Positions 2,400 to 18,079 of a DNA stretch of 18,079 nucleotides are shown here, piece by piece (position 1 is the first letter of the stretch; each line of letters starts with the position of its first letter). A program made the position numbers and the translations under genes. The DNA lies in IMG/VR virus record IMGVR_UViG_3300045988_024913; one strand, 5' to 3'. Below the pieces are notes generated by a model. The model searched no databases, was not told the origin of the DNA, and was given only the letters and a program-made list of their open reading frames with translations. This DNA is from a virus.

Positions 2400-2431
2400 C
2401 CCCCCGTCGTTTCCATCCTTACGACGGGGGG
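2400..2431 (+). terminator. Stem-loop, putative intrinsic terminator or attenuator
   Basis: An 11-bp perfect GC-rich stem, CCCCCCGTCGT (2400-2410) with ACGACGGGGGG (2421-2431), has a 10-nt loop and is followed by TGTTTCAC, a weak U tract. Confidence 0.5.
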
Positions 2432-2457
2432 TGTTTCACACTCACAAGGGAGGAGCC

Positions 2458-3402
2458 GTGGCAAAACGCAAAAACAACCGACGTGCCAACAATCTGAAAC
2501 GCAACGCCGCCATCAGGTCGGCACAGGTACGCCGAGAGCAAGCGGTCAGGGATTACAGTACCGGACATCTCCCCAAGCAAATCACCGAAACGTTTTTAGG
2601 AAAACTCAGCGCCCAACAACTCGAACAGGTCGCACGACGCATCGGGCAGGAATTCGGGGAACGACAGCAAGCATTAAGGGCGCGGGACGGCGAGCCGTAT
2701 CAGGTTGTCCCGGATGTGCATGTCACGAAACTTGATAGGGAGCTGGCGGCGCGTCCGTTGATTACCGACGCGGAAATCGCCGCCGCCCCGTCGAAACGTC
2801 AGAAGACGTTACGACAGCAGCAGCGCCGCCGCATCGAGGCACGGCAGAAAATCAAACGCGCCCAACAGTTCGACGCATTGAGCCTAGCCCGCTACACCGT
2901 GGCCGAAATACGTGAAATGGAACGCGCCGGAGAATCCCCCTTTGATGTGCTGGGCACTCACACGGTCGGCGGTTCGGCGCGTGACGAACTCACGCGCAAC
3001 CGTGCGAACGTGTTCGGCTCGGAGCGCGGCATGAGTCACGCGCGTATGATGATACGAGAAGGGGGCAGGAGGAAGCTTGAACGTGAGATACTCGAATATG
3101 CCGGGCTTGTAGGTCGAGCGCCATTGCATGCAGGTACTAGACAGATTTCCGGAGGTGAGGGGGTTTCGGATTTTGACAGGGTCGCACAGCAACTCGAATC
3201 ATTCGACTCCAGTATAGCCCAAAAATTCGCATCCTTATCGAACCGTCAAAAACGATGGCTGATAAATAATACAAATTTCAGCACCGTGGTACGTGAGGCC
3301 GCTTGGTATAATGATAAGACACATAAATGGGAGACAAAGGCGGATGCGGGCGATGTAGAGACACGACTTGATGAATGGATGGCCAGCGCGGCACGACACT
3401 AA
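2458..3402 (+). CDS. Probable terminal (priming) protein (314 aa)
   Basis: GTG 2458 follows the strong SD AAGGGAGGAG at 2446-2455; track ORF 2431..3402 starts inside the hairpin. The N-terminus is very basic (AKRKNNRRANNLKRN). The gene lies immediately upstream of the protein-primed polymerase in an ITR-bearing linear genome. No direct similarity to phi29 p3 recognised. Confidence 0.6.
   Translation: MAKRKNNRRANNLKRNAAIRSAQVRREQAVRDYSTGHLPKQITETFLGKLSAQQLEQVARRIGQEFGERQQALRARDGEPYQVVPDVHVTKLDRELAARPLITDAEIAAAPSKRQKTLRQQQRRRIEARQKIKRAQQFDALSLARYTVAEIREMERAGESPFDVLGTHTVGGSARDELTRNRANVFGSERGMSHARMMIREGGRRKLEREILEYAGLVGRAPLHAGTRQISGGEGVSDFDRVAQQLESFDSSIAQKFASLSNRQKRWLINNTNFSTVVREAAWYNDKTHKWETKADAGDVETRLDEWMASAARH
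3304..3312 (+). promoter_or_regulatory. Perfect extended -10 sequence TGGTATAAT inside the 3' end of the terminal protein gene
   Basis: The TGnTATAAT consensus occupies 3304-3312, about 105 nt upstream of the polymerase start codon. Confidence 0.4.
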
Positions 3403-3416
3403 AAAAGGATGGAATT

Positions 3417-4877
3417 ATGCGAGAGCGTCGAACGGCGGCAACGGACGGCGTAACACTATTGACGGATGACGGCGTGGAACCATTGACAGCAGCCGCCGTC
3501 ATCCGGCTTACCATGCTTGATTATCATACGCGCGTATGGTGCGCCCACGGATGGCAGGATATCAAGCCCATAGCCGCCGAACTGTTGAAACGACTCCCCT
3601 TGCAATCGAATCCGGCCAAGGATGGCGTGTGGGGCACGTTCAACATTCGAGGCCACTTCTATAGTTTCCGTGTACGCATAGGCGGTATCACCGTGGATTT
3701 TTTGGACGTGCGCAACATTACACGTGACGATGGATTGAATGTTTCACGTGAAACATTCGGCGGTGCGGATGATTTGGAGACCACGTGGAACATCGCGCAG
3801 GAATGCGCCGCCCTGCATCTCAGGGGCACAACCATAGCATCTATGGCGATGGCCGACTATATAGACGGGGATTATGCCGGGTTCAAGCGTCATTTTCCGC
3901 CATTGGACAAAGAGGTTTATCATCGGATGCGCCCCGCCTACTATGGGGCGATAGTGTACAGCAAGCCGGGCGAGTACCGGGATTGCCGAAGCTGGGATGT
4001 AAACAGTCTCTACCCAAGTATCATGCGCGATGCCCCCATGCCGGTAGGCTCACCCGTGTGGCATGACGGGGAGTATCGGTATGACGCTGATTATCCGTTG
4101 CATATCGATGTCATCACGTTTGATGCAAGGTTGAAAACGGGGAAAACAGCGACACTCACCAATATCTTACCCGTATGGGGGTATGAGGGCGAACGCTTGG
4201 ATAGTACGTTGGGTGCCATCACATTGCCGGTCACTGATGTGGATTGGGAGACGCTCACGGAAAACTATGACGTGCACGTGTGGGAACATGTCGGCGGTTG
4301 GAAATTCCGTAAATCGCACGGACTTTATTACACCTATGTTGATAAATGGTTTCACGTGAAACAAACCGCCACCGGAGAGCGTAGGCAGATGGCGAAACTG
4401 TTACTAAACTCACTGGTGGGGAAATTCGGGGCCTCGCTCTACCGTCCCATGTTGCACCCAAAACCATCGGCGGACGGTGGCGTGGATTTTACCGTGGACA
4501 AACCCGAGTCGGCCAACAGTCTGGCATGGTTGCCGACCGCCGCATATGTCAATGCCTACGGACGGCAAATACTATCCCGCGCCATGAACGCGAACGCCGA
4601 CCGCGTACTCTACGCCGACACTGACGGCATGATACTGGAAGGGTTGGATACACCCATCGGCATCGAAACGGATGACCGGAAACTAGGGGCGTGGAAAAAC
4701 GACCACACCTATGAGAGGCTCCGTATTCTCGGCAATCGCAAATATTGCGGCGCGGAAACGGATGGCGATACGGTAATGCGATTGAGTGGCGTGCATCGTG
4801 CCGCCCCCATCCCCTATGATGAGTTCCTGCCGGGGTCACGTCATCTCAATGATGACGGCCATATTTTCGTGCTATAA
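3417..4877 (+). CDS. Family B DNA polymerase, protein-primed (phi29 gp2-like), 486 aa
   Basis: ATG 3417 follows AAGGATGG; the track start 3375 overlaps the terminal protein gene. Motif A is WDVNSLYPS (phi29 FDVNSLYPA). DADYPLHID matches phi29 DEDYPLHIQ. Motif B is KLLLNSLVGKFG (phi29 KLMLNSLYGKF). Motif C is LYADTDG (phi29 IYCDTDS). The KxY motif is NRKY. Confidence 0.95.
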   Translation: MRERRTAATDGVTLLTDDGVEPLTAAAVIRLTMLDYHTRVWCAHGWQDIKPIAAELLKRLPLQSNPAKDGVWGTFNIRGHFYSFRVRIGGITVDFLDVRNITRDDGLNVSRETFGGADDLETTWNIAQECAALHLRGTTIASMAMADYIDGDYAGFKRHFPPLDKEVYHRMRPAYYGAIVYSKPGEYRDCRSWDVNSLYPSIMRDAPMPVGSPVWHDGEYRYDADYPLHIDVITFDARLKTGKTATLTNILPVWGYEGERLDSTLGAITLPVTDVDWETLTENYDVHVWEHVGGWKFRKSHGLYYTYVDKWFHVKQTATGERRQMAKLLLNSLVGKFGASLYRPMLHPKPSADGGVDFTVDKPESANSLAWLPTAAYVNAYGRQILSRAMNANADRVLYADTDGMILEGLDTPIGIETDDRKLGAWKNDHTYERLRILGNRKYCGAETDGDTVMRLSGVHRAAPIPYDEFLPGSRHLNDDGHIFVL

Positions 4878-4878
4878 T
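4870..4878 (+). promoter_or_regulatory. Perfect extended -10 promoter element TGCTATAAT overlapping the polymerase stop codon
   Basis: The TGnTATAAT consensus occupies 4870-4878, giving a predicted start near 4884-4886. Downstream lie a 187-bp non-coding region and then the late genes. Confidence 0.5.
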
Positions 4879-4884
4879 ATCCGG

Positions 4885-5053
4885 TAGCGGGATGTGCGTC
4901 CCAAGTCGATTCGATGGCCCGACCGTAAGGCAAGTCGGTAAGGCGATTCGGTTGGATGTAGACGTGCGTAGCCAACGCCCAGCGACGGCGAGGGAACCCG
5001 CACAGCCTAGCAAACCGGCATGACGGCGTGATTGCCGTCATGCCACTTACTTT
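4885..5053 (+). ncRNA. Candidate structured RNA of about 170 nt (pRNA-like candidate, or a structured late-mRNA leader)
   Basis: This is the largest non-coding gap in the genome. It is bracketed by the extended -10 at 4870-4878 and the hairpin at 5017-5044. A long-range helix pairs 4887-4902 with 4992-5011 (gc/gc, ggg/cct, tgtgcg/cgcaca, tccc/ggga, with bulges). No ORF with an SD is present. Confidence 0.35.
5017..5053 (+). terminator. Stem-loop with a short interrupted T run, just before the scaffold gene SD
   Basis: An 11-bp perfect stem, GGCATGACGGC (5017-5027) with GCCGTCATGCC (5034-5044), has a 6-nt loop and is followed by ACTTACTTT. Confidence 0.5.
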
Positions 5054-5064
5054 AAGAGGTGATT

Positions 5065-5406
5065 ATGGACGACACCGAAACCAATGAGCCGGACACCACG
5101 CCCGACACCGAGTCGGACGCCAAGCCAACCGACGATAATACGCCAAACCCGGAGCCCGAAACGCAGGACAATGGCGAACCAGAAGACGCGGGCGACGATA
5201 AGGACGCCGACATGGCCAACCGGCTGGACGCCTTGGAAGCGACCGTGGCGGAACTATCCAAAACCATTGAGGCCATGCGTGACGCCGCCGCCGAACATGT
5301 GCTGAACGATGGCCCGGGCGATGACGAGGAGCCGGGCGCCACGGAAGTGACTGACGACGACTACAACGGCACCTATTCCACGTTCGACGACCTATATGAA
5401 GACTGA
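5065..5406 (+). CDS. Probable scaffolding protein (113 aa), highly acidic with a helical central part
   Basis: ATG 5065 follows AAGAGGTG. The protein is D/E/T/P-rich with a segment ANRLDALEATVAELSKTIEAMRDAAAE. It lies immediately upstream of the major capsid gene, as phi29 gene 7 does. Confidence 0.6.
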   Translation: MDDTETNEPDTTPDTESDAKPTDDNTPNPEPETQDNGEPEDAGDDKDADMANRLDALEATVAELSKTIEAMRDAAAEHVLNDGPGDDEEPGATEVTDDDYNGTYSTFDDLYED

Positions 5407-5426
5407 TAACAGAAAGGAAAACTACA

Positions 5427-7163
5427 ATGCCGACTACTCCAGTGGTGACGCCGAAGCAGCAGCTTCGACCGCTCACCGAATTTAACAACGCGCAGATTCT
5501 CAACATGATTCGCAATGAGGCATCTCCCGAGTACCAGCGGCGTATGCCAAGTGCGACTCAAATGAACATGGACAGGCAGATGGCCACCCTCATGTCGTCC
5601 ACTCAGCTGAAGAACGAGTTTTACTCGGCCTTGGTGAACCGTATCGGCGGCACCTATGTGAACACATGGCGCTGGAATAATCCACTCACCGTGTTCCAGC
5701 GCGCATCTCAGGCGTATGGCGACACGTGGCAGGAAATCGCCGTAGGTATGCCACTCGCACAAGTGTACGACCCGGACGCGGAGTACTTGGGCGCGGATAA
5801 TTTCCGCAAGTGGAAAATCGACGTGGACAGCCTCTATCATCGGCTTGACTTCACTCACTTCTACCCCGTCACCACGGAAGATAAGACGCTCCAGCGTGCC
5901 TTCACCTCCGAAAACGGTTTGGCCTCGCTCACCTCGCAGATTCTCACATCCTGTTACAATGCGGCTGAGGTTGACTTGTTCGAGGCCATGTGTCACCAGT
6001 TCGTCGAGTATGCGAAACTCGGCGGATATTGGCGTGTCCACATGGGGCACGACCTTAACGACATGGGCAGTTCGGAAACGGACGCCCGCGACATGTTGCG
6101 CCAGATTCGCGCATGGGCTGACACGCTGAAATTTGTATCCACTCGGTACAATGCGCGTCACATGCCGACGTTCGCCCGCCCCGACGAACTCGTGCTGTTC
6201 TGCTCGCCCGAAGTCAAGTCGGCGCTTGACGTGCAGGGTCTGGCGACCGTGTTCCAGCGTACGGACGCGGAACCGACCATTGACCGGATTATCGTCATCC
6301 CACAAGACAGGTTCGGCATGGACGGCGTGCAAGCCATCCTGACCACTGACAAATTCCTCATCGATATTCCCGTCATCAATGAGATGACCCAGCAGACGAA
6401 CCCGGTTAACATCAATTCGGTCAACCATTACTTGCACGTCCAACACATCATTTCGGTGTCTGGTTTCGCCCCCGCCGTCATGTTCTGGACTGGAGAGGGT
6501 TCCACCGCGAAAATGGTGCCGCCTACCGGTACGACGGCCAAGACGCCGACCTTCCAACTCAAACTTGCCATGTACGGTGGTGGCACATCCACCCCGTCGA
6601 ATGTGGCGCGTGGCGGAGCGGTGCAGGTCGTTGCCGATACGTCCATCACCAATGACGGTACGGCCACGTTCCGCTCGAATGCGGTCGAGTATCGTATCGG
6701 CGACACTGTCAAGCCCAAGAGCGATTACACCTATATTTCGCCGACCGGCGTGCTCGTGGTCGGTCTTGACGAACCAAACACCACTATTCCGGTCACGGCC
6801 ACCGCCCTATATACGAACCCGACGACGCCGGAAGTGCCGGGCACCGTGTCCGCCGCCCTGAACGTGCCGGTGGTTGGCGATGGTGTCATCGGATTCAACC
6901 CGTCCATCGTCGCGTCGATTGCCGTCAATGTTTCGAAAGTGACCGTGGGCCATACGGTGCAGGCGACTGCCGTAGCGACCATGATTGACGGGCGAACCGC
7001 CGACGTGACCGCTCAAGCCGCATGGACATCCGGCACCCCGGCCAACGCCACCGTATCCGAGTCCGGCGTGGTGACTGGAATCAAGGAGGGCAGTTCTGAT
7101 ATCACCGCCACGCTGTTCGGCGTATCCGGTAAGAAGAGCGTGACCGTGACAGCGGCCGCGTGA
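5427..7163 (+). CDS. Major capsid protein (phi29 gp8-like) with C-terminal Ig-like (Big_2-type) domain(s), 578 aa
   Basis: ATG 5427 follows GAAAGGAAA. NEFYSALVNRIG, FYPVTTEDKTLQRAF and ILTSCYNAAEVDLFEAM parallel phi29 gp8 NDFITSLVDRIG, FYHQTIQDDSLKTAF and IINAIYNSAEVDEYEYM. The C-terminus ATVSESGVVTGIKEGSSDITATLFGVSGKKSVTVTA is a typical Big_2 signature. Confidence 0.9.
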   Translation: MPTTPVVTPKQQLRPLTEFNNAQILNMIRNEASPEYQRRMPSATQMNMDRQMATLMSSTQLKNEFYSALVNRIGGTYVNTWRWNNPLTVFQRASQAYGDTWQEIAVGMPLAQVYDPDAEYLGADNFRKWKIDVDSLYHRLDFTHFYPVTTEDKTLQRAFTSENGLASLTSQILTSCYNAAEVDLFEAMCHQFVEYAKLGGYWRVHMGHDLNDMGSSETDARDMLRQIRAWADTLKFVSTRYNARHMPTFARPDELVLFCSPEVKSALDVQGLATVFQRTDAEPTIDRIIVIPQDRFGMDGVQAILTTDKFLIDIPVINEMTQQTNPVNINSVNHYLHVQHIISVSGFAPAVMFWTGEGSTAKMVPPTGTTAKTPTFQLKLAMYGGGTSTPSNVARGGAVQVVADTSITNDGTATFRSNAVEYRIGDTVKPKSDYTYISPTGVLVVGLDEPNTTIPVTATALYTNPTTPEVPGTVSAALNVPVVGDGVIGFNPSIVASIAVNVSKVTVGHTVQATAVATMIDGRTADVTAQAAWTSGTPANATVSESGVVTGIKEGSSDITATLFGVSGKKSVTVTAAA

Positions 7164-7197: not shown

Positions 7198-7216
7198 TCA
7201 CGGCGAGATGCAATAC

Positions 7217-7255
7217 AAGGCCCGGAGCGCAAGCCACGTGAGCGCTCCGGGCCTT
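7217..7255 (+). terminator. Stem-loop 2 after the capsid gene
   Basis: AAGGCCCGGAGCGC (7217-7230) pairs with GCGCTCCGGGCCTT (7242-7255). This is a 14-bp perfect stem with an 11-nt loop and no clear U tract. Confidence 0.5.
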
Positions 7256-7274
7256 GCCATATGAAAGGGATAGT

Positions 7275-9524
7275 ATGCTGAGAGATATCAACCCTAACGT
7301 CGAGGCGACGTTTAACTGGGCTCAATGGACGCCCAACACGTCACTGAAACTCTGTAACGTGCCGTGGGATAGTAGTTACCGTGACCTAGCCCGGTTCGAA
7401 TCACCGCAGAAACAACAGGAATGGTTCGACCGACGGCCCGGCATTGACAGGGTACATGGAGTCATGCACATGTTCGGCCAACCCGTGCGCGTCGAACTGC
7501 CATTTAACGAGGCGTCCAACTACAACTATGTCGTGGTGTATAACGATTACCCCGATTTGGAGGCGCCACGGTATTGGTATTATTTCATCAACCACGTGGA
7601 TTACATCAATGCGTACACTACTCAGCTCACTGTGCAGTTGGACGTTTGGCAGTCGTTCCAGCATGTACTTAGGTTCGGTTCATGCTATGTGGTGCGAGGC
7701 CATATCGGCATTGCCAACGAAAACCAGATGACCGATTATGGCCGCAGTTATCTCGCACTACCCGAAGGGCTGGACACCGGTAGCGAAATGGTGACGGTAA
7801 ACCAACGATACAAGTCTCTTATCAGCATGGACGGGAAAAATCTGAGTTACGGCGTAATAGTCGTGAGCACGGTAGATTTGTCAGCGGACGCGGGCAGTCA
7901 GGGAAAACCGTCTCTCACTACTGCGGGCGGCTCTCTTTTCGAGAACATGGCTAACGGTGCTGAAATACTGTACTTTAAGGATATCCAGTCTATCCAAGTG
8001 TTTATGGGAGTGGGCTCTACTTTTTCATGGATAACACAGGGTATTGTAAACATGTACATGATACCCTCTTTAGATGATGACTTTCTTAAGCAATCCGGCT
8101 ATGTCGTAGATAAGCTGTTTGGGAAAACACTCCCTTCGGAATTAAATAATCGTATCTACCGTTTCCCCCAGTCGGCCACAAATGCGCCCAGCAGATATGA
8201 AGACATTATTACCATTAATGATTTTCGTGATAATTTTAATATCCCTGAACGTTATAAAAACCTTAAAAAACTCAAATGCTACCCCTATTCTACTGTTGAA
8301 TGCACTTGCTTGAATGGTACTAATATCACCTATAAGCCCGAAAATATCCAAAGCGATAATCTGGTTATTAGAGAGGTGCATAATTACGCGCCCAATGGCG
8401 CGCGCTTGAACTTTTACCCGGTTGGGTACAATAAGGCGGGTGCAAGCGAGATTGCTCCTCTTGGTAAAAACAATGGGTTGCCCATTGATAGCGGGGAAAT
8501 GTTGGACGCCGCGTTTGGCATCAGCAATTTCCCTCAATTTGTGATAGTCAACAATGGCGCCCAGTTGGCAATGGCAAACAGTGCCTACACTCGTTCCTAC
8601 AGTCAACAGTCCGCCGACTGGGCATACCAAAAAGCGCAGATGGGCATCAGTCAGTCTCTTGCGGCCACGGCCATGCAAAACCAGTACAACACCCAAGCCA
8701 ACAAACTCGCTATCGGCAACCGCAACGCCAATAACGCAATTCAAGCGACAGCTCTTAACACCGGTCTGGATAACACGACGTATATCAACAATCAGCGAGC
8801 CGACCTAGCCCAGCTAAACAACGTGGCAAACGGTGTAATCGGGGTGGTGGGTAACGCCGCTTCGGGCAATGTCGGGGGCGCGGTATCGGCATTAGGCGGG
8901 GCGGTCATGAATGGTGTCAACACTGAAGCAAACCGCAGTATCAACAATACCGCCGCCCAACTTTCCACGGCGAACTCGCTGAGTACCAACGCGGCCACAA
9001 CAAGTCAGGCCAACACATACGGTTCTCAGACTACAGCGCTTTCAAACCAGTTGGCCCAAAACATGGCGGACATGAACGCGGATTACGCGCAACGTTCCGC
9101 GTTCGGCGACTATCAAAACACCATTGCGGGCATCAATGCACAGGTACAGCAGATGCAATTAACACCCCCGACCACCTCCGGTGCCATCGGCGGAGACGGT
9201 TTTAACCTCGCGAACGGTATTGTCGGGGTGTTGGTCCGATTTAAGACGTGCGCACCCTCAGCTCTGCGGAGCGTCGGAGAGTACATGTTACGTTACGGGT
9301 ATTTTATCCAGCGTTTCATCACGCCGCCGCAATCGCTGGAATGTATGACAAAATTCACGTACTGGCAGATGCAAGAGTGTTACGTGCGAGGTGATTTGCC
9401 CGAGCAGTATCGACAGACCATTAAAGGCGTGTTCGAGTCTGGGGCTACTATATGGACTAACCCGGATGATATCGGCGTGACCGATTGGGCGGATAACGAC
9501 CCATTGCCGGGCATCTCATTCTAG
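7275..9524 (+). CDS. Tail knob protein (phi29 gp9-like), 749 aa
   Basis: ATG 7275 follows AAAGGGA; the track start 7254 lies inside hairpin 2. CNVPWDSSYRD, RYWYYFINHVDYINAYTTQLTVQLDVWQSF, KCYPYSTVECT and MLRYGYFIQR...GATIWTNPDDIG parallel phi29 gp9 [55 protein letters not shown] and FHKYGYKINR...GITLWHTDNIG. Confidence 0.85.
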   Translation: MLRDINPNVEATFNWAQWTPNTSLKLCNVPWDSSYRDLARFESPQKQQEWFDRRPGIDRVHGVMHMFGQPVRVELPFNEASNYNYVVVYNDYPDLEAPRYWYYFINHVDYINAYTTQLTVQLDVWQSFQHVLRFGSCYVVRGHIGIANENQMTDYGRSYLALPEGLDTGSEMVTVNQRYKSLISMDGKNLSYGVIVVSTVDLSADAGSQGKPSLTTAGGSLFENMANGAEILYFKDIQSIQVFMGVGSTFSWITQGIVNMYMIPSLDDDFLKQSGYVVDKLFGKTLPSELNNRIYRFPQSATNAPSRYEDIITINDFRDNFNIPERYKNLKKLKCYPYSTVECTCLNGTNITYKPENIQSDNLVIREVHNYAPNGARLNFYPVGYNKAGASEIAPLGKNNGLPIDSGEMLDAAFGISNFPQFVIVNNGAQLAMANSAYTRSYSQQSADWAYQKAQMGISQSLAATAMQNQYNTQANKLAIGNRNANNAIQATALNTGLDNTTYINNQRADLAQLNNVANGVIGVVGNAASGNVGGAVSALGGAVMNGVNTEANRSINNTAAQLSTANSLSTNAATTSQANTYGSQTTALSNQLAQNMADMNADYAQRSAFGDYQNTIAGINAQVQQMQLTPPTTSGAIGGDGFNLANGIVGVLVRFKTCAPSALRSVGEYMLRYGYFIQRFITPPQSLECMTKFTYWQMQECYVRGDLPEQYRQTIKGVFESGATIWTNPDDIGVTDWADNDPLPGISF

Positions 9525-9539: not shown

Positions 9540-10496
9540 ATGTCTAGGTCGAGGAAAAATCAGAATCGCAGGGGCGGCGCGTTGCACCCGCGTGGCAATT
9601 ACGCCAAGGCGCGCGCCGCCGACCTTGACGCAATGTACTATCACTTGTTAACTGAACTGGCACTGAACCGGTTCAGTTGGCGGGGGCTACCGCCAACAGT
9701 GGATGAACGATGGCTGGAAATGTGTCTGTGTGAATACGGGTGCGCGTTGTTTTTCGAGGACAAGCGTATAGGCCGGTTCCTCGTAACACAGGCCGGCTAT
9801 CAAGGCCGATTGAATGTGTATAATAATCCGACGTGTTTCGAGCCGGTGGGCGTCAACTACCATTACAAGCAACTCAAGGCGGGCCGTGAATGCATCCCGA
9901 TTTGGGACAATCGGATGCGCATGAGTTTCAAAGATATCTTATGGCAGTATGCGAGACGCCTTGCCGACATTGACAAGGCATATGATGTGAACTTGGAGAG
10001 CCTGAAACTGCCGACCATCATCACCGCCGACCCGCGCACCAAGCTCACCGTGCAAAACATGCTCCAGCAAAGGCAGGACGGCCAAGACTATATCATCGGA
10101 TATGACTCCCTCGACCCCGGTAGCATGTTCCAGCCGTGGCCCAACACTACACCGTATCTGCTGGACAAGTTTATCCAGCAAAAAACTCAGGTGACTAACG
10201 AGGTATTGGGGTATCTCGGTATCCAGTCCAGTGGTACCGAGAAAAAAGAACGGCTTATTTCCGATGAGGTGGCGCAGGCCAATGAGAAAACGGACGTGTT
10301 CCGGTTGAGTTTTCTCAAGGCTCGGCAGACGGCGGCGACTGAGATTAACCGGCTGTGGCCGCAACTTAACATCTGGGTTGAGTATGCGGACGCGCAAAGC
10401 TCCGGCGTGCCGAACGCGCTGGACTCCAGCGCAAGCGGTACGACGGATATTGATATGCCCGCGTCGTATGACGCGGGTATTGGAGGTGTATTGTGA
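9540..10496 (+). CDS. Head-tail connector / portal (upper collar) protein (phi29 gp10-like), 318 aa
   Basis: FSWRGLPPTVDERWLE, YLGIQSSGTEKKERLISDEVAQANEK and FLKARQTAATEINRLW parallel phi29 gp10 [42 protein letters not shown] and FLKSREEACEKINELY. The length is similar (318 vs 309 aa). Confidence 0.93.
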   Translation: MSRSRKNQNRRGGALHPRGNYAKARAADLDAMYYHLLTELALNRFSWRGLPPTVDERWLEMCLCEYGCALFFEDKRIGRFLVTQAGYQGRLNVYNNPTCFEPVGVNYHYKQLKAGRECIPIWDNRMRMSFKDILWQYARRLADIDKAYDVNLESLKLPTIITADPRTKLTVQNMLQQRQDGQDYIIGYDSLDPGSMFQPWPNTTPYLLDKFIQQKTQVTNEVLGYLGIQSSGTEKKERLISDEVAQANEKTDVFRLSFLKARQTAATEINRLWPQLNIWVEYADAQSSGVPNALDSSASGTTDIDMPASYDAGIGGVL

Positions 10497-10729
10497 TGAT
10501 GACTTGTGACACTATGGTGAGACTCGTCCATGAAATGTATGAAATCGCCGATAAAATCAGTGAGGCCGAATATGCTCTATATAGCTATGAAACGGGGGAC
10601 TTGTCCATGTCCAGCCGTGCTGCGGAGCTGCTGAAAAAACAAGTTGTTGCAATGAAAGCATATCATGATATCATCGCCGCACGTATTAGCCACCAAGCGG
10701 AGGGGGCCACGTATGGCACAGAGTTTTAG
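10496..10729 (+). CDS. Small hypothetical protein (77 aa), predicted helical
   Basis: ATG 10496 shares its A with the portal stop TGA (GTGATG) and follows GGAGGTG at 10483-10489. No family recognised. Confidence 0.5.
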   Translation: MMTCDTMVRLVHEMYEIADKISEAEYALYSYETGDLSMSSRAAELLKKQVVAMKAYHDIIAARISHQAEGATYGTEF

Positions 10730-11507
10730 CGCCTATGCGATGGAAACGCCGGGGGAGTACACGGAAACCCTCGGCAATCTCATTGCGTTCGGATACGACA
10801 CGGATACCAAACTGCATCTCAGCGCCGACTATTACCCGATTTATGATGAATCACATCGTGCGGAATTGAACAAGAAAATCGTCCGCCATTACGCGCTTAG
10901 GGAGATTGGTCAGGAAACCGCCCAGCAGTTCATTTTTTACTTGGGAATGACGATGGCGGAAATCATGCCATATTTTAATGAGCGCTACAGGACGCTAGCG
11001 TTGAAATATGACCCATTGAACACTATGGAAATGGTCAGTGAAAGCCTATCCAATACTGTAGCCCAGTCCAGCGGCAAAACCAGCGCCTCTCAGGATAGTG
11101 AGACCCGAAGCTCCTCGGACGGCACCAGCTCAAGTAGCACCAAGTCCCAGTCTTACGACTCAGAAGTGCCCGCAACCGGCGTGCAAGGTGATTTTGCTCG
11201 ATACGCGACCCATGCCAATCAGGCGCAAGCGGATACGGACGGCAGTAGCCATAGCACGCAAGATACCTCTTCTCAGTCCCATAGTACATCCAGCACGGAA
11301 TGGCAACACGACGCCACAGATGGGAACACCAAATCCCACACGTCGGGCCGCTCCCAGTCCGCCATGAGCCTCATCCAAGAGTACCGGAATGCGATTATTA
11401 ATGTGGACATGGAAATCGTGCGGAGTCTCGAACCGTGTTTCATGCAAGTATGGGGCTCGTATGATACTATTTTCAGTAACTGCCATAATTATGGAGAACG
11501 GGAGTGA
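10713..11507 (+). CDS. Lower collar protein (phi29 gp11-like), 264 aa
   Basis: ATG 10713 follows GGAGGGGG; the track start 10665 lacks an SD. YPIYDESHRAELNKKIVRHYALREIGQETAQQFIFYLGMTMAEIMPYFNERY matches my recollection of the conserved N-terminal signature of lower collar proteins in small podoviruses. The position after the connector gene agrees. Confidence 0.7.
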   Translation: MAQSFSAYAMETPGEYTETLGNLIAFGYDTDTKLHLSADYYPIYDESHRAELNKKIVRHYALREIGQETAQQFIFYLGMTMAEIMPYFNERYRTLALKYDPLNTMEMVSESLSNTVAQSSGKTSASQDSETRSSSDGTSSSSTKSQSYDSEVPATGVQGDFARYATHANQAQADTDGSSHSTQDTSSQSHSTSSTEWQHDATDGNTKSHTSGRSQSAMSLIQEYRNAIINVDMEIVRSLEPCFMQVWGSYDTIFSNCHNYGERE

Positions 11508-12536: not shown

Positions 12537-13436
12537 ATGTCCAGTATCAACAAAACCCCGCACTATAATCTCAGCCAGTTCGGTGACAGCCCGGACGATA
12601 AACCGTCATGGCGCGGCGACTACACTGCGGATATGAGCAAGATCGACTCGCAGATGTATCGTAATGAAACGGACGCGACAACCGCAGCAAGTACCGCCAA
12701 TACGGCGAAAAGCACGGCGGATAACGCTCTATCGTTGGCGCAAACCAATAAGAGTGATATTGCCGAACATGCGTCGTATTTTACCGCGCTTGGCGTGACC
12801 TCGGAATCGACCGCACAAGCGCTTATGTCCACCATTAACGGTAAGGCGGAAAACACCGCGTTGACCACACTGCAAGGCACGGTGTCTTCTCTATCCAGCA
12901 CGGTCGACACCAAGGCGAACACGTCCGACGTGTACACCAAGAGTCAGGCCGACGCCCGATACACCCAGCAAGGGGGGTACGCTGGGACTGCCTCCACGAT
13001 TTATGAGATGGCGAGCGGGGCACAATCCAGCATTACTAGCCTCCAGTCAACCGGGGTCGCCCCGATTCAAGTCGTAAGTCAAAACGTGCTGACAGACTAT
13101 TTCGCAAACGGAGCTTGTGTGCTCACCGCGTATTATTCACCAATCTCTCGCATGATACACATCATGCTCAGGGTCGGGGCAGCAGAGGGAACCGGCGTAA
13201 CGCCAAAAAAGGCGTACCCCGGTAATCTGAGTACAAAAATAGCGACTATCGAGGAGCAGTATAGGCCCACTGTTTCGATTCAATCGCCCACGCAGCCGAT
13301 ATCTAACCCGGGCTCATTAAGTAACATTTTGGTAATGCCGACAGGCGAAATCAAGTTTTGGGGCGGTTCAAGCGGATTGTCAACATCAGCTTCAATCAAC
13401 GCAACTTTCCAGACAAGCTACTTTATTGTCCGCTGA
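12537..13436 (+). CDS. Tail fibre / receptor-binding protein candidate (299 aa)
   Basis: ATG 12537 follows GGAGGAGG. The N-terminus KTPHYNLSQFGDSPDDKPSWRGDYTADMSKIDSQM is followed by an A/T/S-rich, probably coiled-coil shaft and a distinct C-terminal domain. Confidence 0.6.
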   Translation: MSSINKTPHYNLSQFGDSPDDKPSWRGDYTADMSKIDSQMYRNETDATTAASTANTAKSTADNALSLAQTNKSDIAEHASYFTALGVTSESTAQALMSTINGKAENTALTTLQGTVSSLSSTVDTKANTSDVYTKSQADARYTQQGGYAGTASTIYEMASGAQSSITSLQSTGVAPIQVVSQNVLTDYFANGACVLTAYYSPISRMIHIMLRVGAAEGTGVTPKKAYPGNLSTKIATIEEQYRPTVSIQSPTQPISNPGSLSNILVMPTGEIKFWGGSSGLSTSASINATFQTSYFIVR

Positions 13437-13437
13437 C

Positions 13438-14697
13438 ATGATTATACCCCGCTCGGTATGCCGGGCGGGGTATACTAATACTATGGTAGACGTGCAAGCA
13501 TGGTTGGAACGTACCCAAAACCAATACTGGGATATGGATGGGGTTTACGGCGCCCAATGCTGGGACCTGTGGGCGAAATACTGCATGGATAATTACAATC
13601 TGTCATTAGGCGACTGCATCACCCCGACAGGTTACGCGGCGGGCAATTACATCATGTTCCCCACCACGTCCGCCGTGGGGCGTGTTTTTGAGAAAAAAGA
13701 CGCCAACTATACGCCCGGCATGGGGGATGTCGTGTTCTGGAGGTTCGGCAGTCAAAACTACCCCGGCAGTCACGTGGCCATCGTATGGGGGGGCGTCCAA
13801 GGCGACAATATCGACGTGTTGACGCAAAACCCAACGCCCGCCGTACATCAATTGTTGCCGCTCGCGAAAAGCTCCCAACTGCTTGGCTATCTGCATCCCA
13901 CGGCATTGCCGGAACCGCCGGAATCCGGCGACAATCCGACAGGCGGCAATAATCCGGGCGTGACCGTGGACGGCGATATTTCCGCATGGATACAATTACA
14001 GGGCGATAACCTCGTATATCACAGTGGTTCGGGCACGACATCATCGCAAGCCATTTTCTACAAGGCGAGCGCCCAGACGTGGATATATCGTGGCGGCACA
14101 GGTCAGCCGGACGCCGACCAAGGTCAGGGCACGCCAAGCGTGGGCGACGGGAAAAGCTCATACGCGCTCTATGTAATCGGTACCGTTGAATCATCATTAC
14201 GCTGGGATGCTGTCGAACCAAACAATCAGGGCATCGGCATCGCACAATGGAGTTTCGGACGCCGCCTACAGGTCTTGAATGCGATGAGGGCGGTGGACGC
14301 TGTAGGATATGAGGCGTTTGCCGCCGCCGCGCCGAGTATCGCCACGCTTATGGAATCAGGCGGCGCATTCGATAGGGCGATGACCGGTAGCGAGGTCGCC
14401 GCATTCCAGATTTGGGCGCGGCGCACGGAATCACGGCAGGGACAGCGAAACCAGTTTGCCGAGGACTACGAGAGCTACCCGAAGACGTATGACGATGTGA
14501 AAATGCAGATACTATGGGTGAGCGCCTATCATCAAAGCCCGGCGGGCGCGTTGAACGTGCCACATGCCTCAACCCTTGCCCAACTGTATAGTAATATCCT
14601 CAATACCTCCCCGTTCGGGCCATACGGGACACGTTATAACACCGTCTATTCGTTGTTGAATGTGTGGGACGGCGCCAGCGCACCACCGAACTTCTGA
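13438..14697 (+). CDS. Tail-associated peptidoglycan hydrolase: N-terminal CHAP domain plus C-terminal lysozyme/transglycosylase-like domain (functional analogue of phi29 gp13)
   Basis: The CHAP Cys context is GAQCWDLW (around 13549-13572) and the His context is GSHVAIV (around 13765-13785). A P/G/N linker follows. The C-terminal part has GTVESSLRWD...GIGIAQWS, reminiscent of the E-S / G-[LI]-x-Q transglycosylase signature. The start is uncertain: ATG 13438 has no SD, and ATG 13483 is an alternative. Confidence 0.75.
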   Translation: MIIPRSVCRAGYTNTMVDVQAWLERTQNQYWDMDGVYGAQCWDLWAKYCMDNYNLSLGDCITPTGYAAGNYIMFPTTSAVGRVFEKKDANYTPGMGDVVFWRFGSQNYPGSHVAIVWGGVQGDNIDVLTQNPTPAVHQLLPLAKSSQLLGYLHPTALPEPPESGDNPTGGNNPGVTVDGDISAWIQLQGDNLVYHSGSGTTSSQAIFYKASAQTWIYRGGTGQPDADQGQGTPSVGDGKSSYALYVIGTVESSLRWDAVEPNNQGIGIAQWSFGRRLQVLNAMRAVDAVGYEAFAAAAPSIATLMESGGAFDRAMTGSEVAAFQIWARRTESRQGQRNQFAEDYESYPKTYDDVKMQILWVSAYHQSPAGALNVPHASTLAQLYSNILNTSPFGPYGTRYNTVYSLLNVWDGASAPPNF

Positions 14698-14698
14698 C

Positions 14699-14738
14699 AC
14701 AGTGACAAACCGGTAGATATATACCGGTTTGTCACTGT
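14699..14738 (+). terminator. Very strong stem-loop between the tail lysin and ATPase genes
   Basis: ACAGTGACAAACCGGTA gatata TACCGGTTTGTCACTGT forms a 17-bp perfect stem with a 6-nt loop. It starts 2 nt after the stop codon and is followed by TGTATGG, with no U tract. Confidence 0.5.
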
Positions 14739-14749
14739 TGTATGGTAGT

Positions 14750-15856
14750 ATGGATACTATGGAGAGACTGTTAGCGGAGGGTGATTATTACGATTATGGG
14801 CGCGTATTATCCTATCACGCGCCTTGGATGTTCGTAATCGGCGCGCGCGGCCTCGGCAAAACCTATGGTGCCAAAAAACTTGTCATTGGTGACTGGATTA
14901 AAAAACGCTGGCAATTCATCTATCTAAGACGTACCGCCGAGGAACAGAAAAACAAGGGCACATGGTTTGCTGACATTGCAGAACAGTATCCGGAGCTGGA
15001 ATTTCGCGTGTCCGGCAATCAGGCAGAATGTCATTGGCTGGATGACAGGGACGCGACCACGGACAAACACGGCAAGACGCGCCCCACGTGGCATATCATG
15101 GGGTATTTCATCGCCCTCAGTCAGGCCGGACAAGTGAAATCAGTTGCGTATCCCAAAGTGCGAACCATTGTTTTTGATGAGATTTTCCCCGATAATATGC
15201 GGTATTTGGGCGGTGAGGTGACCGCGCTTGAGGAATTTTATAATACGGTTGACCGTTGGAATGATAGGACTCGCGTTATCATGTGCAGTAATGCGGTAAC
15301 GTTGGCCAACCCGTATTTTTCGGCATTTAACATCAATCTGAAAACCCAATTGGATAATCACACGCAATACCAACGCTATTGCAACGGGTTCATTATGGTG
15401 GAATTGGCGGATTACGGGGGGTTCAGCGCCAAGGTGGCCACGTCGAAATTCGGTCAGTTTCTACGCGAATATGATGAGAATTATGCGAATTATGCAATCA
15501 ACAATGATTTCAGGGATAACGCCAATACTCTCGTCAGTGATTTCAACAACGCCGGTTATGCGTTCACGCTGAGAACGACCGAATACGGTATTTTTAACGT
15601 ATACCAACAATTAAGCGATACCGACGAAGTACTATATATAATCACCAAAAAACAGCCTAAAATCACCCGTGATTTTACGTTTGATTACCGACTGGTTGAC
15701 AATGATTGCATCATGCTCAAACGTTCCGACGATATGACGCAGAAAATATTAAGCGCCTATCGCGTCGGGCGACTGCGTTTTGAAACACCGCAAATCAAAG
15801 CGGAGTTCAGTATGATACTTGGCGGCCTGCTACAGCAATCAGGTATAAGAAAGTGA
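14750..15856 (+). CDS. DNA encapsidation ATPase (phi29 gp16-like), 368 aa
   Basis: FVIGARGLGKTYGAKK (Walker A), QFIYLRR, VRTIVFDEIF (Walker B) and CSNAVTLANPYFSAFNI parallel phi29 gp16 FVIGARGIGKSYAMK, QFIYVRR, VSTIVFDEFI and LSNAVSVVNPYFLFFNL. The start is either ATG 14750 or ATG 14759; the track start 14729 lies inside the hairpin. Confidence 0.92.
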   Translation: MDTMERLLAEGDYYDYGRVLSYHAPWMFVIGARGLGKTYGAKKLVIGDWIKKRWQFIYLRRTAEEQKNKGTWFADIAEQYPELEFRVSGNQAECHWLDDRDATTDKHGKTRPTWHIMGYFIALSQAGQVKSVAYPKVRTIVFDEIFPDNMRYLGGEVTALEEFYNTVDRWNDRTRVIMCSNAVTLANPYFSAFNINLKTQLDNHTQYQRYCNGFIMVELADYGGFSAKVATSKFGQFLREYDENYANYAINNDFRDNANTLVSDFNNAGYAFTLRTTEYGIFNVYQQLSDTDEVLYIITKKQPKITRDFTFDYRLVDNDCIMLKRSDDMTQKILSAYRVGRLRFETPQIKAEFSMILGGLLQQSGIRK

Positions 15857-15865
15857 GGAACATAT

Positions 15866-16231
15866 ATGCCAATCCATGAGTTAATCGTTATCGGTATCGT
15901 ATTTTTATTGGTGCTGATTGATTATATTACCGGAGTAGTTAACGCGATTATGCAAGGCGAACTGTCCAGTAAAAGAATGAGGGAAGGACTCGGGCACAAG
16001 TTCGCCTATCTGGCGGTAATTTGCGTGGCGTTGATTGTGGAATACGGTTCTGATTACATCAATCTTGGAATCGAACTACCCGTATTCATTCCCGTTTGCG
16101 TAGGTATCTGTCTGACTGAAATCACATCAATCATCGAAAACTGCGTGAAAATCAACCCCGAACTATCCAGCTCGAATATTCTCAATATTTTCAACATCGA
16201 CAGGAAGGAAGATAATGGCAAAGAAGATTAA
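15866..16231 (+). CDS. Holin (phage_holin_4 / toxin-secretion-type family), 121 aa
   Basis: ATG 15866 follows GAGGAA. It has three hydrophobic segments and a charged C-terminal tail (DRKEDNGKED). The LIDYITGVVNA...SSK....G...K pattern is typical of this holin family. It lies immediately upstream of the endolysin gene and overlaps it. Confidence 0.8.
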   Translation: MPIHELIVIGIVFLLVLIDYITGVVNAIMQGELSSKRMREGLGHKFAYLAVICVALIVEYGSDYINLGIELPVFIPVCVGICLTEITSIIENCVKINPELSSSNILNIFNIDRKEDNGKED

Positions 16232-17279
16232 AGCAGTCGCCTATAGTGTAATCGCCGCGACCACCGCACTGCTGTTGGCATTCGCGCCAACCGCGAGCGC
16301 GGCGGACATGATAGACGTATCCAGTTGGCAGACCGGCATCAACGTAACCACCACTGGCGCGCAAATCGTCGTAGCCAAAGCCACCGAGGGTGTCGGATAC
16401 GTCAACCCCGATTGCGACCGCGTGGTACAAGACGCCCTGAAAGCAGGGCAGGGGGTAGGCGTCTACCATTTCGCGCACACGGAAAACAGCGCTGTCAGCG
16501 AGGCCAATTACTTTATCAACAACACACGCGGATACATCGGTAAAGGCATCGTGCCGATACTAGACTGGGAGCCAAACGCCCCATGGGACACTGGTTGGGC
16601 CCTCACATGGCTCCAAACCGTGGAAGCCGCATGGGGCACCAAGCCAATCATCTACACGAACCAATTCACGGAAAATTCCTACGACTGGTCGGCGGTTGTC
16701 GCCGGTAACTATGGCCTGTGGATAGCCGCTTACACGCTGGGTTATACACCAATATACGGGTTTAATCCGCCCTCAACCCAGCCCACACTCCACTACTGGC
16801 CGTTTGCCGTAGCATGGCAATACACTAGCACCGGCTATATCAACGGCTGGGCCGAAGGAGTTGACCTAAGCGTAGTCTACGGCGACCTCAACACGTGGCA
16901 CGCATACGCAGGCAGCGGACAAGTCGCACCCAAGCCCACACCGCAACCCGCACCGCAACCCGCACCGCAACCCAGTGCGCCGAACACTCCATGTAACACC
17001 AATTGCGTTATCATCCAAAGCGGCCAGTATGTTTCAATGTTCTGGCCCGACTGGTGGAACGTAAGCGCACCCAGCGGCAACCCGTCCATCGTATACCCCG
17101 GCGACAAGGTATGTCACAACGGCGGAGGCACCGCAACAGTATCACGCACATACGTAGTGCAGGCGGGCGACACGCTATCAAGCATTGCCGCATATCTTGG
17201 AGTCAACATGTACAACATCACCGGATACAGCTCTGGTAACATGAACCTCATCTACCCCGGGGAAGTACTCTACTACTAA
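16215..17279 (+). CDS. Endolysin: N-terminal signal peptide, GH25 muramidase domain, Pro-rich linker, C-terminal LysM-type wall-binding region
   Basis: ATG 16215 follows AGGAAGGAAG. MAKKIKAVAYSVIAATTALLLAFAPTASA|AD looks like a Sec signal with an AxA site. DVSSWQ...VVAKATEG..YVNP...GVYHFA is the GH25 signature. The linker is PKPTPQPAPQPAPQPSAP. The C-terminus YVVQAGDTLSSIAAYLGVNMYNITGYSSGNMNLIYPGEVL is LysM, preceded by a degenerate LysM-like unit. Confidence 0.9.
   Translation: MAKKIKAVAYSVIAATTALLLAFAPTASAADMIDVSSWQTGINVTTTGAQIVVAKATEGVGYVNPDCDRVVQDALKAGQGVGVYHFAHTENSAVSEANYFINNTRGYIGKGIVPILDWEPNAPWDTGWALTWLQTVEAAWGTKPIIYTNQFTENSYDWSAVVAGNYGLWIAAYTLGYTPIYGFNPPSTQPTLHYWPFAVAWQYTSTGYINGWAEGVDLSVVYGDLNTWHAYAGSGQVAPKPTPQPAPQPAPQPSAPNTPCNTNCVIIQSGQYVSMFWPDWWNVSAPSGNPSIVYPGDKVCHNGGGTATVSRTYVVQAGDTLSSIAAYLGVNMYNITGYSSGNMNLIYPGEVLYY
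16939..16974 (+). repeat. 12-bp tandem repeat (about 3 copies of CACCGCAACCCG) encoding the PQPA linker
   Basis: The copies are 16939-16950, 16951-16962 and 16963-16974 (last base differs). All lie inside the endolysin linker. Confidence 0.85.
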
Positions 17280-17292
17280 TCTCCCCGGCATG

Positions 17293-17325
17293 AATAAGCC
17301 CCGCAAAATGCGGGGCTTATTTGTT
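17293..17325. terminator. Bidirectional intrinsic terminator between the convergent + strand late genes and the - strand right-end genes
   Basis: AATAAGCCCCGC (17293-17304) pairs with GCGGGGCTTATT (17310-17321). This 12-bp stem has a 5-nt loop, is followed by TGTT on the + strand, and has A/T-rich stem bases at both ends. Confidence 0.8.
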
Positions 17326-17330
17326 ATCGG

Positions 17331-17576
17331 TCACCATGCATAATCATAAATTGAAACAACATATGAACAAACACCATTTTCAACACCACAACATACAAAA
17401 TCAAAATCACAATCACCATAATCATGTTCAAGAACCCTAGTAAGAGCTGATTTAAACGTGACCACGCCATTATCAATCTCCCTACAAGCATTAACAATTT
17501 TCTCAAACCCGTCAACATCAACCAAATAGACATGATACGGTTCAATCTCAGTCACATAAGCATTAACCTTAAACAT
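17331..17576 (-). CDS. Hypothetical right-end protein (81 aa)
   Basis: The ATG is preceded on the - strand by GGAAGGAGAG. The gene ends just before the bidirectional terminator. No family recognised. Confidence 0.65.
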   Translation of the reverse strand: MFKVNAYVTEIEPYHVYLVDVDGFEKIVNACREIDNGVVTFKSALTRVLEHDYGDCDFDFVCCGVENGVCSYVVSIYDYAW

Positions 17577-17598
17577 TCTACTCTCCTTCCTTTATTGC

Positions 17599-17784
17599 TC
17601 ACTCGGCCACACGATTCACAAAAACCACAGTCTCAAAACAATAACGATAAAACTCAACACCCCCATGCTCATAGAAAACAACAAGACAATCCACAATAGC
17701 ATCAACATCATAACCCACAACACGCCCACCACTGTTGCGAATGTAGCCAATAACCTCATTCTCAATGTCTTGACGATGCATCAT
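17599..17784 (-). CDS. Hypothetical right-end protein (61 aa), first gene read inward from the right ITR
   Basis: This is the 3' part of track ORF 17599..18036. I trimmed it to the ATG mirrored from 296, which uses the same ITR-encoded SD as the left-end gene. An alternative start at 17796 gives MVVEM. Confidence 0.5.
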   Translation of the reverse strand: MMHRQDIENEVIGYIRNSGGRVVGYDVDAIVDCLVVFYEHGGVEFYRYCFETVVFVNRVAE

Positions 17785-18079
17785 CTCAACTACCATCCTT
17801 TCTACATTCCTTGGCCGATAATCACATAATACACCACCACAAAACACAACACGCCCAACAACAACACAAAAACGATAAAAAACAACGAGACAAAAAACGC
17901 AGACAAAACAACAAGCAAAAAACGACAACGAAAAAAGCCAGCAAAACACAACAAGAACCAGAGACGAGGCAAAAAAGCACAACAGAAACAACAACAAAAA
18001 ACACAGAACAAACAACGATAGCAAAACACACAACAAAGCAGTTGTGGAAAAAGGCTAGCTGCTGGGGCCCCTCCCCTCC
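17781..18079. repeat. Right inverted terminal repeat (ITR), 299 bp
   Basis: Reverse complement of 1-299 with a single mismatch at 17819. The window ends exactly at the repeat end. Confidence 0.97.

Follow-up and report, generated by a model that had tools for sequence, protein, structure and literature searches.

What is encoded in the 187-bp gap that separates the DNA polymerase gene from the scaffold-position gene in the phi29-like phage recorded in IMG/VR as IMGVR_UViG_3300045988_024913? The window analysed here is the whole of that record, a complete linear genome of 18,079 bp, in which the polymerase open reading frame (ORF) ends at 4877 and the scaffold-position gene begins with an ATG at 5065, in frame with a GTG at 5059, leaving positions 4878–5064 non-coding. 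An earlier note on this DNA, made from the sequence alone, had described the interval as the largest gap in the genome and as a candidate gene for a packaging RNA (pRNA). The first description holds within the confidently annotated central part of the genome, while coding in 1–533, 795–1019 and 17280–18079 is uncertain. In answer to the question, the gap almost certainly holds a conserved, structured RNA gene on the plus strand. On the basis of its position, architecture and gene context, we read this RNA, with a probability of about 70%, as the counterpart of the phi29 prohead or packaging RNA.

IMG/VR contains 124 close relatives of the phage, with major capsid proteins (MCPs) 91–99% identical to its own; 80 of these were fetched, and 78 align over positions 4700–5420 at 80–99.9% identity. 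A second scan of IMG/VR, with the most divergent member of this window clade as the query, returned the same contigs and no added diversity. Across 79 genomes, nucleotide diversity in the body of the predicted RNA (4887–5011) was 0.059; it was 0.10, 0.07 and 0.35 at codon positions 1, 2 and 3 of the polymerase gene, and 0.27 at third positions of the scaffold gene. When 893 overlapping 100-nt segments spanning ~1–12 kb were ranked by conservation, the top ten all lay at 4881–5070, with an identity of 0.94 against a median of 0.86. The reading of the gap as a small protein-coding ORF was rejected, its frame not being kept in relatives: two minus-strand ORFs remain unbroken in no more than 30 and 18 of the 79, and single-base insertions and deletions segregate inside the gap region. 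The third-codon-position pattern of diversity begins at 5065, with the ATG that, together with its Shine-Dalgarno sequence AAGAGGUG, occupies 5053–5067 on the plus strand.

The extended −10 promoter that had been proposed at 4870–4878 of the plus strand, TGCTATAAT, is present and near-invariant (nucleotide diversity 0.027 across the 79 genomes), without a good −35 element. The polymerase stop codon TAA (4875–4877) sits inside its −10 hexamer TATAAT (4873–4878), and TGnTATAAT also overlaps the polymerase stop in three further groups of phages discussed below, the BD811P2, BadAztec and 77%-MCP clades. The overlap of stop codon and −10 is kept in clades whose capsid proteins are 37–43% identical (loci L082, 4720–4725; L256 and L258–L269; L081, ~5773–5781). 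Between the −10 and the first paired base lies an 8-nt spacer (4879–4886) with a diversity of 0.34. Transcription would begin near 4884–4886, 6–8 nt past the −10, and the 3' end would fall in an interrupted U-run, giving a predicted plus-strand RNA gene of ~165–170 nt at 4884–5053.

The plus strand of the gap folds at −76.4 kcal/mol (z = −2.9), and none of 200 shuffled sequences was as stable. A consensus fold obtained with RNAalifold from 79 sequences divides the RNA into a 125-nt domain (4887–5011), a 5-nt linker (5012–5016) and a 12-bp hairpin (5017–5044), all on the plus strand. The domain is closed by an A-type helix, whose 5' strand (4887–4917) pairs with its 3' strand (4979–5011) in six blocks. 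Three outer blocks join 4887–4891 to 5006–5011, 4893–4898 to 4999–5004 and 4899–4901 to 4993–4995, and three inner blocks join 4905–4908 to 4986–4989, 4911–4913 to 4983–4985 and 4915–4917 to 4979–4981. The 5' strand is interrupted by an internal loop, CAA (4902–4904), and a bulge at 4909–4910, and the 3' strand by an invariant 3-nt bulge, ACC (4996–4998), and a 1-nt bulge, A5009. The outer part corresponds to a long-range helix that had been proposed from the window alone; RNAalifold returns it as 4887–4901/4993–5011, it is 99–100% paired in relatives, and 3 of its pairs are doubly changed in the 77%-MCP clade.

Within the closing helix, two arms meet it in a three-way junction. The C/E arm (4919–4955) consists of a C helix (4919–4925/4949–4955) and an E helix (4933–4937/4944–4948), with a CE-type internal loop of 7 nt on the 5' side only, UAAGGCA (4926–4932), and an E loop, GUAAGG (4938–4943). 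A nearly invariant single-stranded junction of 10 nt, AUGUAGACGU (4956–4965; diversity 0.021), leads from this arm to a D-type hairpin (4966–4978), in which the helix 4966–4969/4975–4978 carries a 5-nt loop, AGCCA (4970–4974), and adjoins the closing helix in a direct stack, with 0 unpaired nucleotides. Relatives back these three arm helices in place of two local stems suggested in the earlier note. The stem ccgac/gtcgg (4919–4938) would contain a C-A opposition in the many relatives that have A at 4934, as would gttgg/ccaac (4951–4976) in the ~90% that have C at 4953, and the same two changes improve the consensus pairs, from G-U to A-U and from G-U to G-C, respectively. We also observed that the E hairpin (4931–4950) reads like 4902–4913 with GUAAGGC inserted, which could reflect an internal duplication or make an alternative pairing possible. 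Beyond the linker, the GC-rich 3' hairpin (12 bp with a 4-nt loop), the equivalent of domain II or a terminator, is the top terminator-like site of the window and is followed by the interrupted U-run ACUUACUUU at 5045–5053. The hairpin and interrupted T run noticed earlier are therefore both real, although the hairpin has 12 pairs, one of them G-U, and not 11.

This fold is supported by the pattern of substitutions. Among the 78 distinct sequences of the window clade, 99.1% of cells hold standard pairs, as opposed to 27–43% when the partners are slid by 1–3 columns. Both partners have changed in nine pairs, of which the 3' hairpin (98.6% paired) accounts for five, and pair 4913/4983 switches from GC to AU within the clade, while the one-sided changes are all switches between G-U and G-C or between G-U and A-U. 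The G-U pairs and G-U switches therefore identify the plus strand as the RNA strand. Because domain I is mostly invariant in the window clade, more distant relatives were sought. A protein search yielded further clades with MCPs 85%, 82% and 77% identical to that of the window, all with the polymerase–gap–scaffold layout kept. Model R2, a covariance model of the window-clade RNA, finds the RNA of the 77%-MCP clade at E ~1e-10; each of the 94 loci searched (1.06 Mb) gave exactly one match, without exception in the syntenic position.

When the 77% clade was added in a model-guided alignment, 95.4% of cells were paired (24–40% in slid controls). Compensatory changes, the evidence that the earlier note had wished to see in relatives, were found at 19 of 44 pairs, with a covariation score reached by 0 of 500 shuffles. 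The doubly changed pairs include three in the outer helix and four in the inner closing helix, five of the 7 in C, three of the 5 in E and three of the 4 in D, and changes on both sides in the 77% clade fall at 4893/5004, 4894/5003, 4898/4999, 4901/4993, 4905/4989, 4907/4987 and 4916/4980. Over the two clades, the C helix is 99.7% paired and the D helix 100% paired. Sixteen independent pair-preserving changes between two clades would otherwise be hard to explain.

The loops of the two arms can also be compared. GCC (4971–4973) in the D-type loop is complementary to GGC (4929–4931) in the CE-type loop; this GGC/GCC match is unchanged in 85–86 of 86 distinct sequences, and in the 77% clade the complementarity reaches 5 bp (UGGCA/UGCCA). 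Known pRNAs have 2–5 loop-loop pairs, and self-complementary loops have been described as unique to pRNA (PMC4201828). In any single RNA such complementarity is weak evidence, phi29's own 4-bp match having a P of 0.04–0.12. It recurs in every clade that we examined.

An equivalent element is present in cultured phages. Searches of deposited phages with megablast and blastn gave no DNA-level match to the window, and relatives among them were reachable through the capsid protein only. By this measure the nearest isolates are the Bifidobacterium phages BadAztec/BadAargau (41–43% MCP identity) and BD811P1-3 and BP1 (37%), followed by phi29-like phages of Arthrobacter, Curtobacterium and Rhizobium. 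The isolated Bifidobacterium phages have the same synteny, with an unannotated gap of 178–230 bp at the equivalent site that opens with gTGCTATAAT or gTGCTATAGT over the polymerase stop. IMG/VR holds ~100 genomes around BD811P2, whose gaps are only 70–90% identical, and 74 genomes make up the evidence for this sister clade. In every case the gap opens with a first promoter and the RNA, which a strong terminator, complete with a U-run, brings to an end (for example CCCCGCGUGAUUGCGGGG UCAUUUUAUUUU); then come another extended −10 promoter (TGATATAAT), a Shine-Dalgarno sequence and the scaffold gene. The strong terminator and second promoter make the RNA its own transcription unit in this clade, where the layout of predicted signals unambiguously points to a discrete gene.

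In the BD811P2 RNA the closing helix starts from the predicted 5' end and opens into a three-way junction. One arm consists of a C helix of 9 bp, interrupted by a single bulge, and an E helix of 4 bp that carries a 7-nt loop, and the internal loop between the two has 7 nt, on the 5' side. A 4-nt junction leads to the other arm, a D helix of 6–7 bp whose loop has 5 nt and whose D/A junction measures 0 nt; a linker and 3' hairpin follow. Across the clade 93.7% of cells are paired (slid controls, 32–52%), rising to 100% in the D helix, and 19 pairs have changed on both sides. The internal loop and D loop match over 4–5 bp, as GCCA/UGGC or ACCA/UGGU. One pair of this match, 55/101, is G-C in 55 sequences, G-U in 7 and A-U in 4, the A-U state having arisen in three lineages, and it is never mismatched (never A-C). 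In the same clade, the long-range UCG/CGA helix of the closing stem has a competitor in a local hairpin, GUCGA-UUU-UCGAC (L082, ~4745–4760; A3 columns 17–27); one sequence, L155, has a single compensatory change that favours the hairpin, which may be an alternative conformer.

Between BadAztec1 and BadAargau2, at least five pair-preserving double changes could be read directly in the closing helix; the inner fold is ambiguous, as two mutually exclusive folds are possible for the two sequences. An analogous unannotated element lies past an RHH gene in the Arthrobacter Anjalivirus phages (Mendel, L086, 1966–2137; L252, L253 and L254). Its closing helix and its terminator hairpin are both compensated, a three-way junction is present, and AGCU is found in the internal loop on the 5' side (ACAGCU) as well as in a hairpin loop (GUAGCU), as a match of AGCU/AGCU. 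In 3 of the 4 phages an ORF separates the element from the scaffold gene. In Rhizobium phage RHph_N3_8, which has a Gram-negative host, the gap before the scaffold-position gene (L088, 1958–2112) also folds: a closing helix encloses inner hairpins, and there is a strong terminator hairpin of 16 bp.

To compare these RNAs with the phi29 pRNA, we fetched phi29 as a control and used the Rfam consensus and fold of its pRNA. Several of the features by which a pRNA would be recognised are present in the window: a domain of ~120 nt, with its ends paired in a bulged helix, and a three-way junction with C/E and D arms. They occur in a genome that has a gp10 connector, a gp16 (nuclease-less) ATPase, a protein-primed polymerase, an MCP and 299-bp inverted terminal repeats (ITRs). 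The connector and ATPase named in the earlier note are both there on the plus strand: a gp10-type connector at 9540–10496 (PF05352 at 1.5e-42) and a gp16-type packaging ATPase at 14729–15856 (PF05894 at 2.1e-42). In phi29, the window and BD811P2, respectively, the CE loop, on the 5' side only, measures 9, 7 and 7 nt, the E helix 4, 5 and 4 bp, and the E loop 6, 6 and 7 nt, while the D loop has 5 nt and the junction between D helix and A helix 0 nt in all three. In the phi29 pRNA itself, which totals 174 nt, the closing helix contains a 3-nt bulge and is followed by a 1-nt junction and a C helix of 9 bp with a single bulge; its 3' hairpin has a U tail and is preceded by a linker of 13 nt. All three RNAs have a linker, a 3' hairpin and a total length of ~170 nt. 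The proposal that the gap encodes a pRNA has survived every comparative test that we ran, namely the conserved promoter, the plus-strand G-U pairs, the covarying fold, the phi29 topology, the complementary loops, the synteny and the presence of connector and ATPase genes.

Several results weigh against this identification. The covariance-model search suggested by the earlier note, with the Rfam pRNA model RF00044 at its gathering threshold and at E up to 10, gave no match in the window or in the genomes of five relatives, while the positive control phi29 scored 145 bits; the RNA is not a member of RF00044 as the model stands. Nor was there a credible match to other Rfam families in the window, the region or the five relatives. 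Models built from individual clades fail to reach phi29 or to connect one major clade with another: model R1 (BD811P2 clade), run with filters off, did not find the window RNA, and models R2 and R3 (the window clade without or with the 77% clade) found no BD811P2, BadAztec, Arthrobacter, Rhizobium or phi29 RNA, giving one non-significant match at the syntenic BadAargau2 site (E 2.3). Since neither RF00044 nor our own models connect the two, the link to pRNA is drawn from architecture, position and gene context and not from similarity of sequence. A model based on Bacillus pRNAs likewise cannot reliably find the proposed pRNA of phage Cp-1 (PMC6266182). In addition, the covariation alignment was fitted to the model, and many of its double changes are single events between two clades. 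The loop-loop match of the window is only 3 bp and invariant, and alone is not significant (P ~0.09–0.19), and the 3-nt bulge of the closing helix lies on the 3' strand in the window (ACC) versus the 5' strand in phi29 (CCA). Finally, in the window clade the hairpin is followed by a weak U-run and by no further promoter, so that any discrete end of the predicted RNA is putative.

How might such an RNA be produced and used? In the window clade no separate late promoter fits between the 3' hairpin and the scaffold Shine-Dalgarno sequence, and the U-run is interrupted, so the RNA promoter probably drives the late operon by read-through. The 3' hairpin would terminate or protect part of the transcripts, giving a free RNA of ~165 nt that would arise by partial termination or processing, and the remaining transcripts would read on into the scaffold and capsid genes of the late operon. 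By analogy with the phi29 system, copies of the RNA would then join head-to-tail through the GGC (4929–31)/GCC (4971–73) loop-loop pairs into a ring on the prohead, and the ring would bind the basic N-termini of the gp10 connector (MSRSRKNQNRRGG). The closing helices would in turn dock the gp16 ATPase, which would pump the protein-primed DNA into the head, and the RNA would be released once packaging ends.

The same order of signals could belong to an RNA that acts only in cis, as a structured 5' leader of the late operon (a riboswitch, an attenuator or an element of processive antitermination) that controls transcription or translation of the scaffold, capsid and tail genes and has no role as a free RNA. 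Such a leader would fit the window clade, where the hairpin ends 8 nt before the scaffold Shine-Dalgarno sequence, with an interrupted U-run and no room for a promoter in between. Moreover, the 7-mer GACGGCG occurs both at 4984–4990 and in the 5' arm of the hairpin (5022–5028), so that its upstream copy could in principle form an alternative pairing with the 3' arm. When this candidate antiterminator (4984–4990 with 5033–5039) was followed through the relatives, about a third of them proved to disrupt it without compensation, as U5038 becomes C and gives A-C with A4985; hence no antiterminator is conserved. The hairpin arms covary with each other, while the upstream GACGGCG is invariant. Given that no antiterminator pairing is conserved, and with no match to a riboswitch, leader or other cis-regulatory family in Rfam, a riboswitch-like leader is unlikely to be the whole story. 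In addition, the RNA of the BD811P2 clade is cut off from the late genes by its strong terminator and second promoter, an ORF stands between RNA and scaffold gene in Arthrobacter phages, and a leader would leave the CE/D complementarity and the pRNA-like dimensions unexplained. We therefore consider it improbable that the RNA is a leader and nothing else. The alternative of a late promoter with a structured leader, raised in the earlier note, does not exclude a packaging RNA in the window clade, where the RNA gene is probably transcribed as part of the late mRNA.

A trans-acting phage small RNA would also fit the discrete gene predicted in the BD811P2 clade; it would resemble pRNA in shape only and have another function, for example in host take-over, as a decoy for defence systems, or as a cofactor of replication or transcription. 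Conserved unpaired segments (the junction J at 4956–65, the E loop and the ACC bulge) show contacts with protein or RNA without specifying the partner, and the lack of sequence homology to pRNA, already counted among the points against a packaging RNA, speaks for this reading too. It seems an unlikely explanation, since in four clades the RNA keeps its place beside morphogenesis genes, all carrier genomes have gp10 and gp16, and topology and element sizes match the phi29 pRNA in detail, including self-complementary loops (PMC4201828). More improbable by far is a control region that acts as DNA, with direct repeats bound by a p4/p6-like regulator at the early-late switch. The three 7-mer repeats noticed earlier are real, as CAAGTCG, GTAAGGC and CGATTCG each occur twice within 4902–4950, and in phi29 the early/late switch region lies directly upstream of the scaffold gene. 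However, the words fall in helices and loops of the RNA, which removes the need to read them as binding sites; substitutions preserve base pairs and not words, with at least 16 pairs changed on both sides; the switches from G-U to G-C would be A-C on the other strand; and the repeats are lost in the 77% clade, where the fold is kept. A packaging RNA remains the reading that we prefer.

The genome around the RNA is that of a phi29-like phage. ITRs of 299 bp lie at both ends (1–299 and 17781–18079; the first 260 bp are perfect, followed by one mismatch up to 299), and for this reason we take the window to be a complete linear genome. The left-end ITR is strongly A-poor on the plus strand. All recognisable genes are on the plus strand. 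A phi29-type single-stranded DNA-binding protein (SSB; 1898–2335) is followed by a 323-aa ORF at the terminal-protein position that has no family match (2431–3402) and by the protein-primed family-B polymerase (3375–4877; PF03175). Past the RNA come the small acidic ORF at the scaffold position (5065–5406), the MCP (Phi29_MCP, 5427–7163; PF25622), the gp9 tail knob (7254–9524), the connector, the lower collar (10665–11507), a CHAP/lysozyme tail protein (13426–14697), the packaging ATPase, a holin (15866–16231) and a GH25-LysM endolysin (16215–17279). The polymerase ORF is short (500 aa), with its family match starting at residue ~148, and is overlapped upstream by the 323-aa ORF; relatives annotate an equivalent pair of ORFs of ~321 aa and 446–470 aa. 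The phage appears to be of the Bifidobacterium type, with a host of the high-GC Actinobacterium type.

Three further regions drew our attention. Within the tail-knob gene, positions 7750–9250 align in only 38–54 of 80 otherwise collinear relatives, at 93–96% identity, and GC content falls to 0.39 at 8001–8400; this looks like a swapped (mosaic) receptor-side module. A small ORF at 10493–10729, with a crAss001_48-related domain (PF21825, E 3e-9), aligns in ~25 of the 80 relatives and is probably an accessory gene between connector and lower collar. Directly past the stop codon of the capsid gene, a perfect GC-rich palindrome, AAGGCCCGGAGCGC...GCGCUCCGGGCCUU (7216–7256), is likely to form a terminator or an mRNA-stabilising hairpin between the capsid and tail genes.

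A 2024 review, whose data set includes BadAztec and BD811P-type phages, describes packaging by means of a pRNA as unique, on present knowledge, to phi29 and its Bacillus relatives (PMC11476376). Our literature searches turned up no publication that connects pRNA with phages of Bifidobacterium, Arthrobacter or Curtobacterium, and the deposited records of these phages that we examined have no RNA annotated at the locus. As a tentative proposal, for which we would put the chances at somewhat below even, the packaging RNA may be an ancestral and universal part of the gp10/gp16 motor, kept at the polymerase–scaffold junction in phages of Actinobacteria (Bifidobacterium, Arthrobacter and perhaps others) while its sequence drifted beyond detection by the models. 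In the window clade it would have become fused to the late operon as a 5' leader, with free RNA supplied by partial termination or processing, and the supply of RNA would be coupled to late transcription. If this is true, pRNA is not peculiar to the Bacillus relatives of phi29, and its origin moves back to the common ancestor of these phages. Independent natural sequence sets would then show which features of the RNA the motor needs, such as the loop-loop pairs, the 0-nt D/A junction and the bulges, and RNA nanotechnology would gain new GC-rich three-way junctions. In any case, the RNA fills an annotation gap in the deposited genomes of these phages, and with cultured relatives in existence (BD811P2, BP1 and BadAztec1) the claim is directly testable.

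In comparison with other systems, attenuators, riboswitch leaders and put-type antiterminator RNAs share with the window the order of promoter, structured RNA, hairpin and first operon gene; unlike them, the window-type RNA has no conserved alternative pairing and no family match, and is detached from the operon in sister clades. The RNAs of Bifidobacterium phages BD811P1-3, BP1, BadAztec1/2 and BadAargau2 and of the Anjalivirus phages are like that of the window in synteny (polymerase, with or without an RHH gene, then RNA, scaffold and MCP) and in having a three-way junction, closed by a compensated helix, and a terminator hairpin, although their sequences cannot be aligned with it; the BD811P2 clade differs from the window in its full terminator and second promoter. 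The putative pRNA of Streptococcus phage Cp-1, which has a Firmicutes host, provides a precedent for pRNA divergence beyond model detection.

The closest likeness is to the pRNAs of the phi29 family (RF00044; phi29, PZA, M2/Nf, B103, SF5, GA-1 and other Bacillus Salasmaviridae). These have the same topology, with near-identical element sizes and CE and D loops that are complementary, by 3–5 bp in the window-type RNA; they too belong to small protein-primed phages with gp10 and gp16, in which the early operon is followed, directly beyond its polymerase end, by a promoter for the RNA alone or, in the window, by a predicted promoter for the RNA. The differences lie in the C/D junction (10 nt in the window versus 3 nt in phi29), in the D helix (4 bp versus 6 bp) and in the host, which is of the high-GC Actinobacterium type for the window as opposed to Bacillus for the phi29 family. 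Gene order can be followed along one strand in both genomes: gene 6, SSB, gene 4, terminal protein, polymerase, gene 1 with small ORFs, promoter A1 and pRNA in phi29, and SSB, terminal-protein-position ORF, polymerase, promoter and RNA in the window. Because the early block is co-oriented with the late genes in the window, the RNA there adjoins the scaffold gene in mid-genome, whereas in phi29 it lies at the left end; and in the window clade, unlike phi29, the RNA probably doubles as the 5' leader of the late mRNA.

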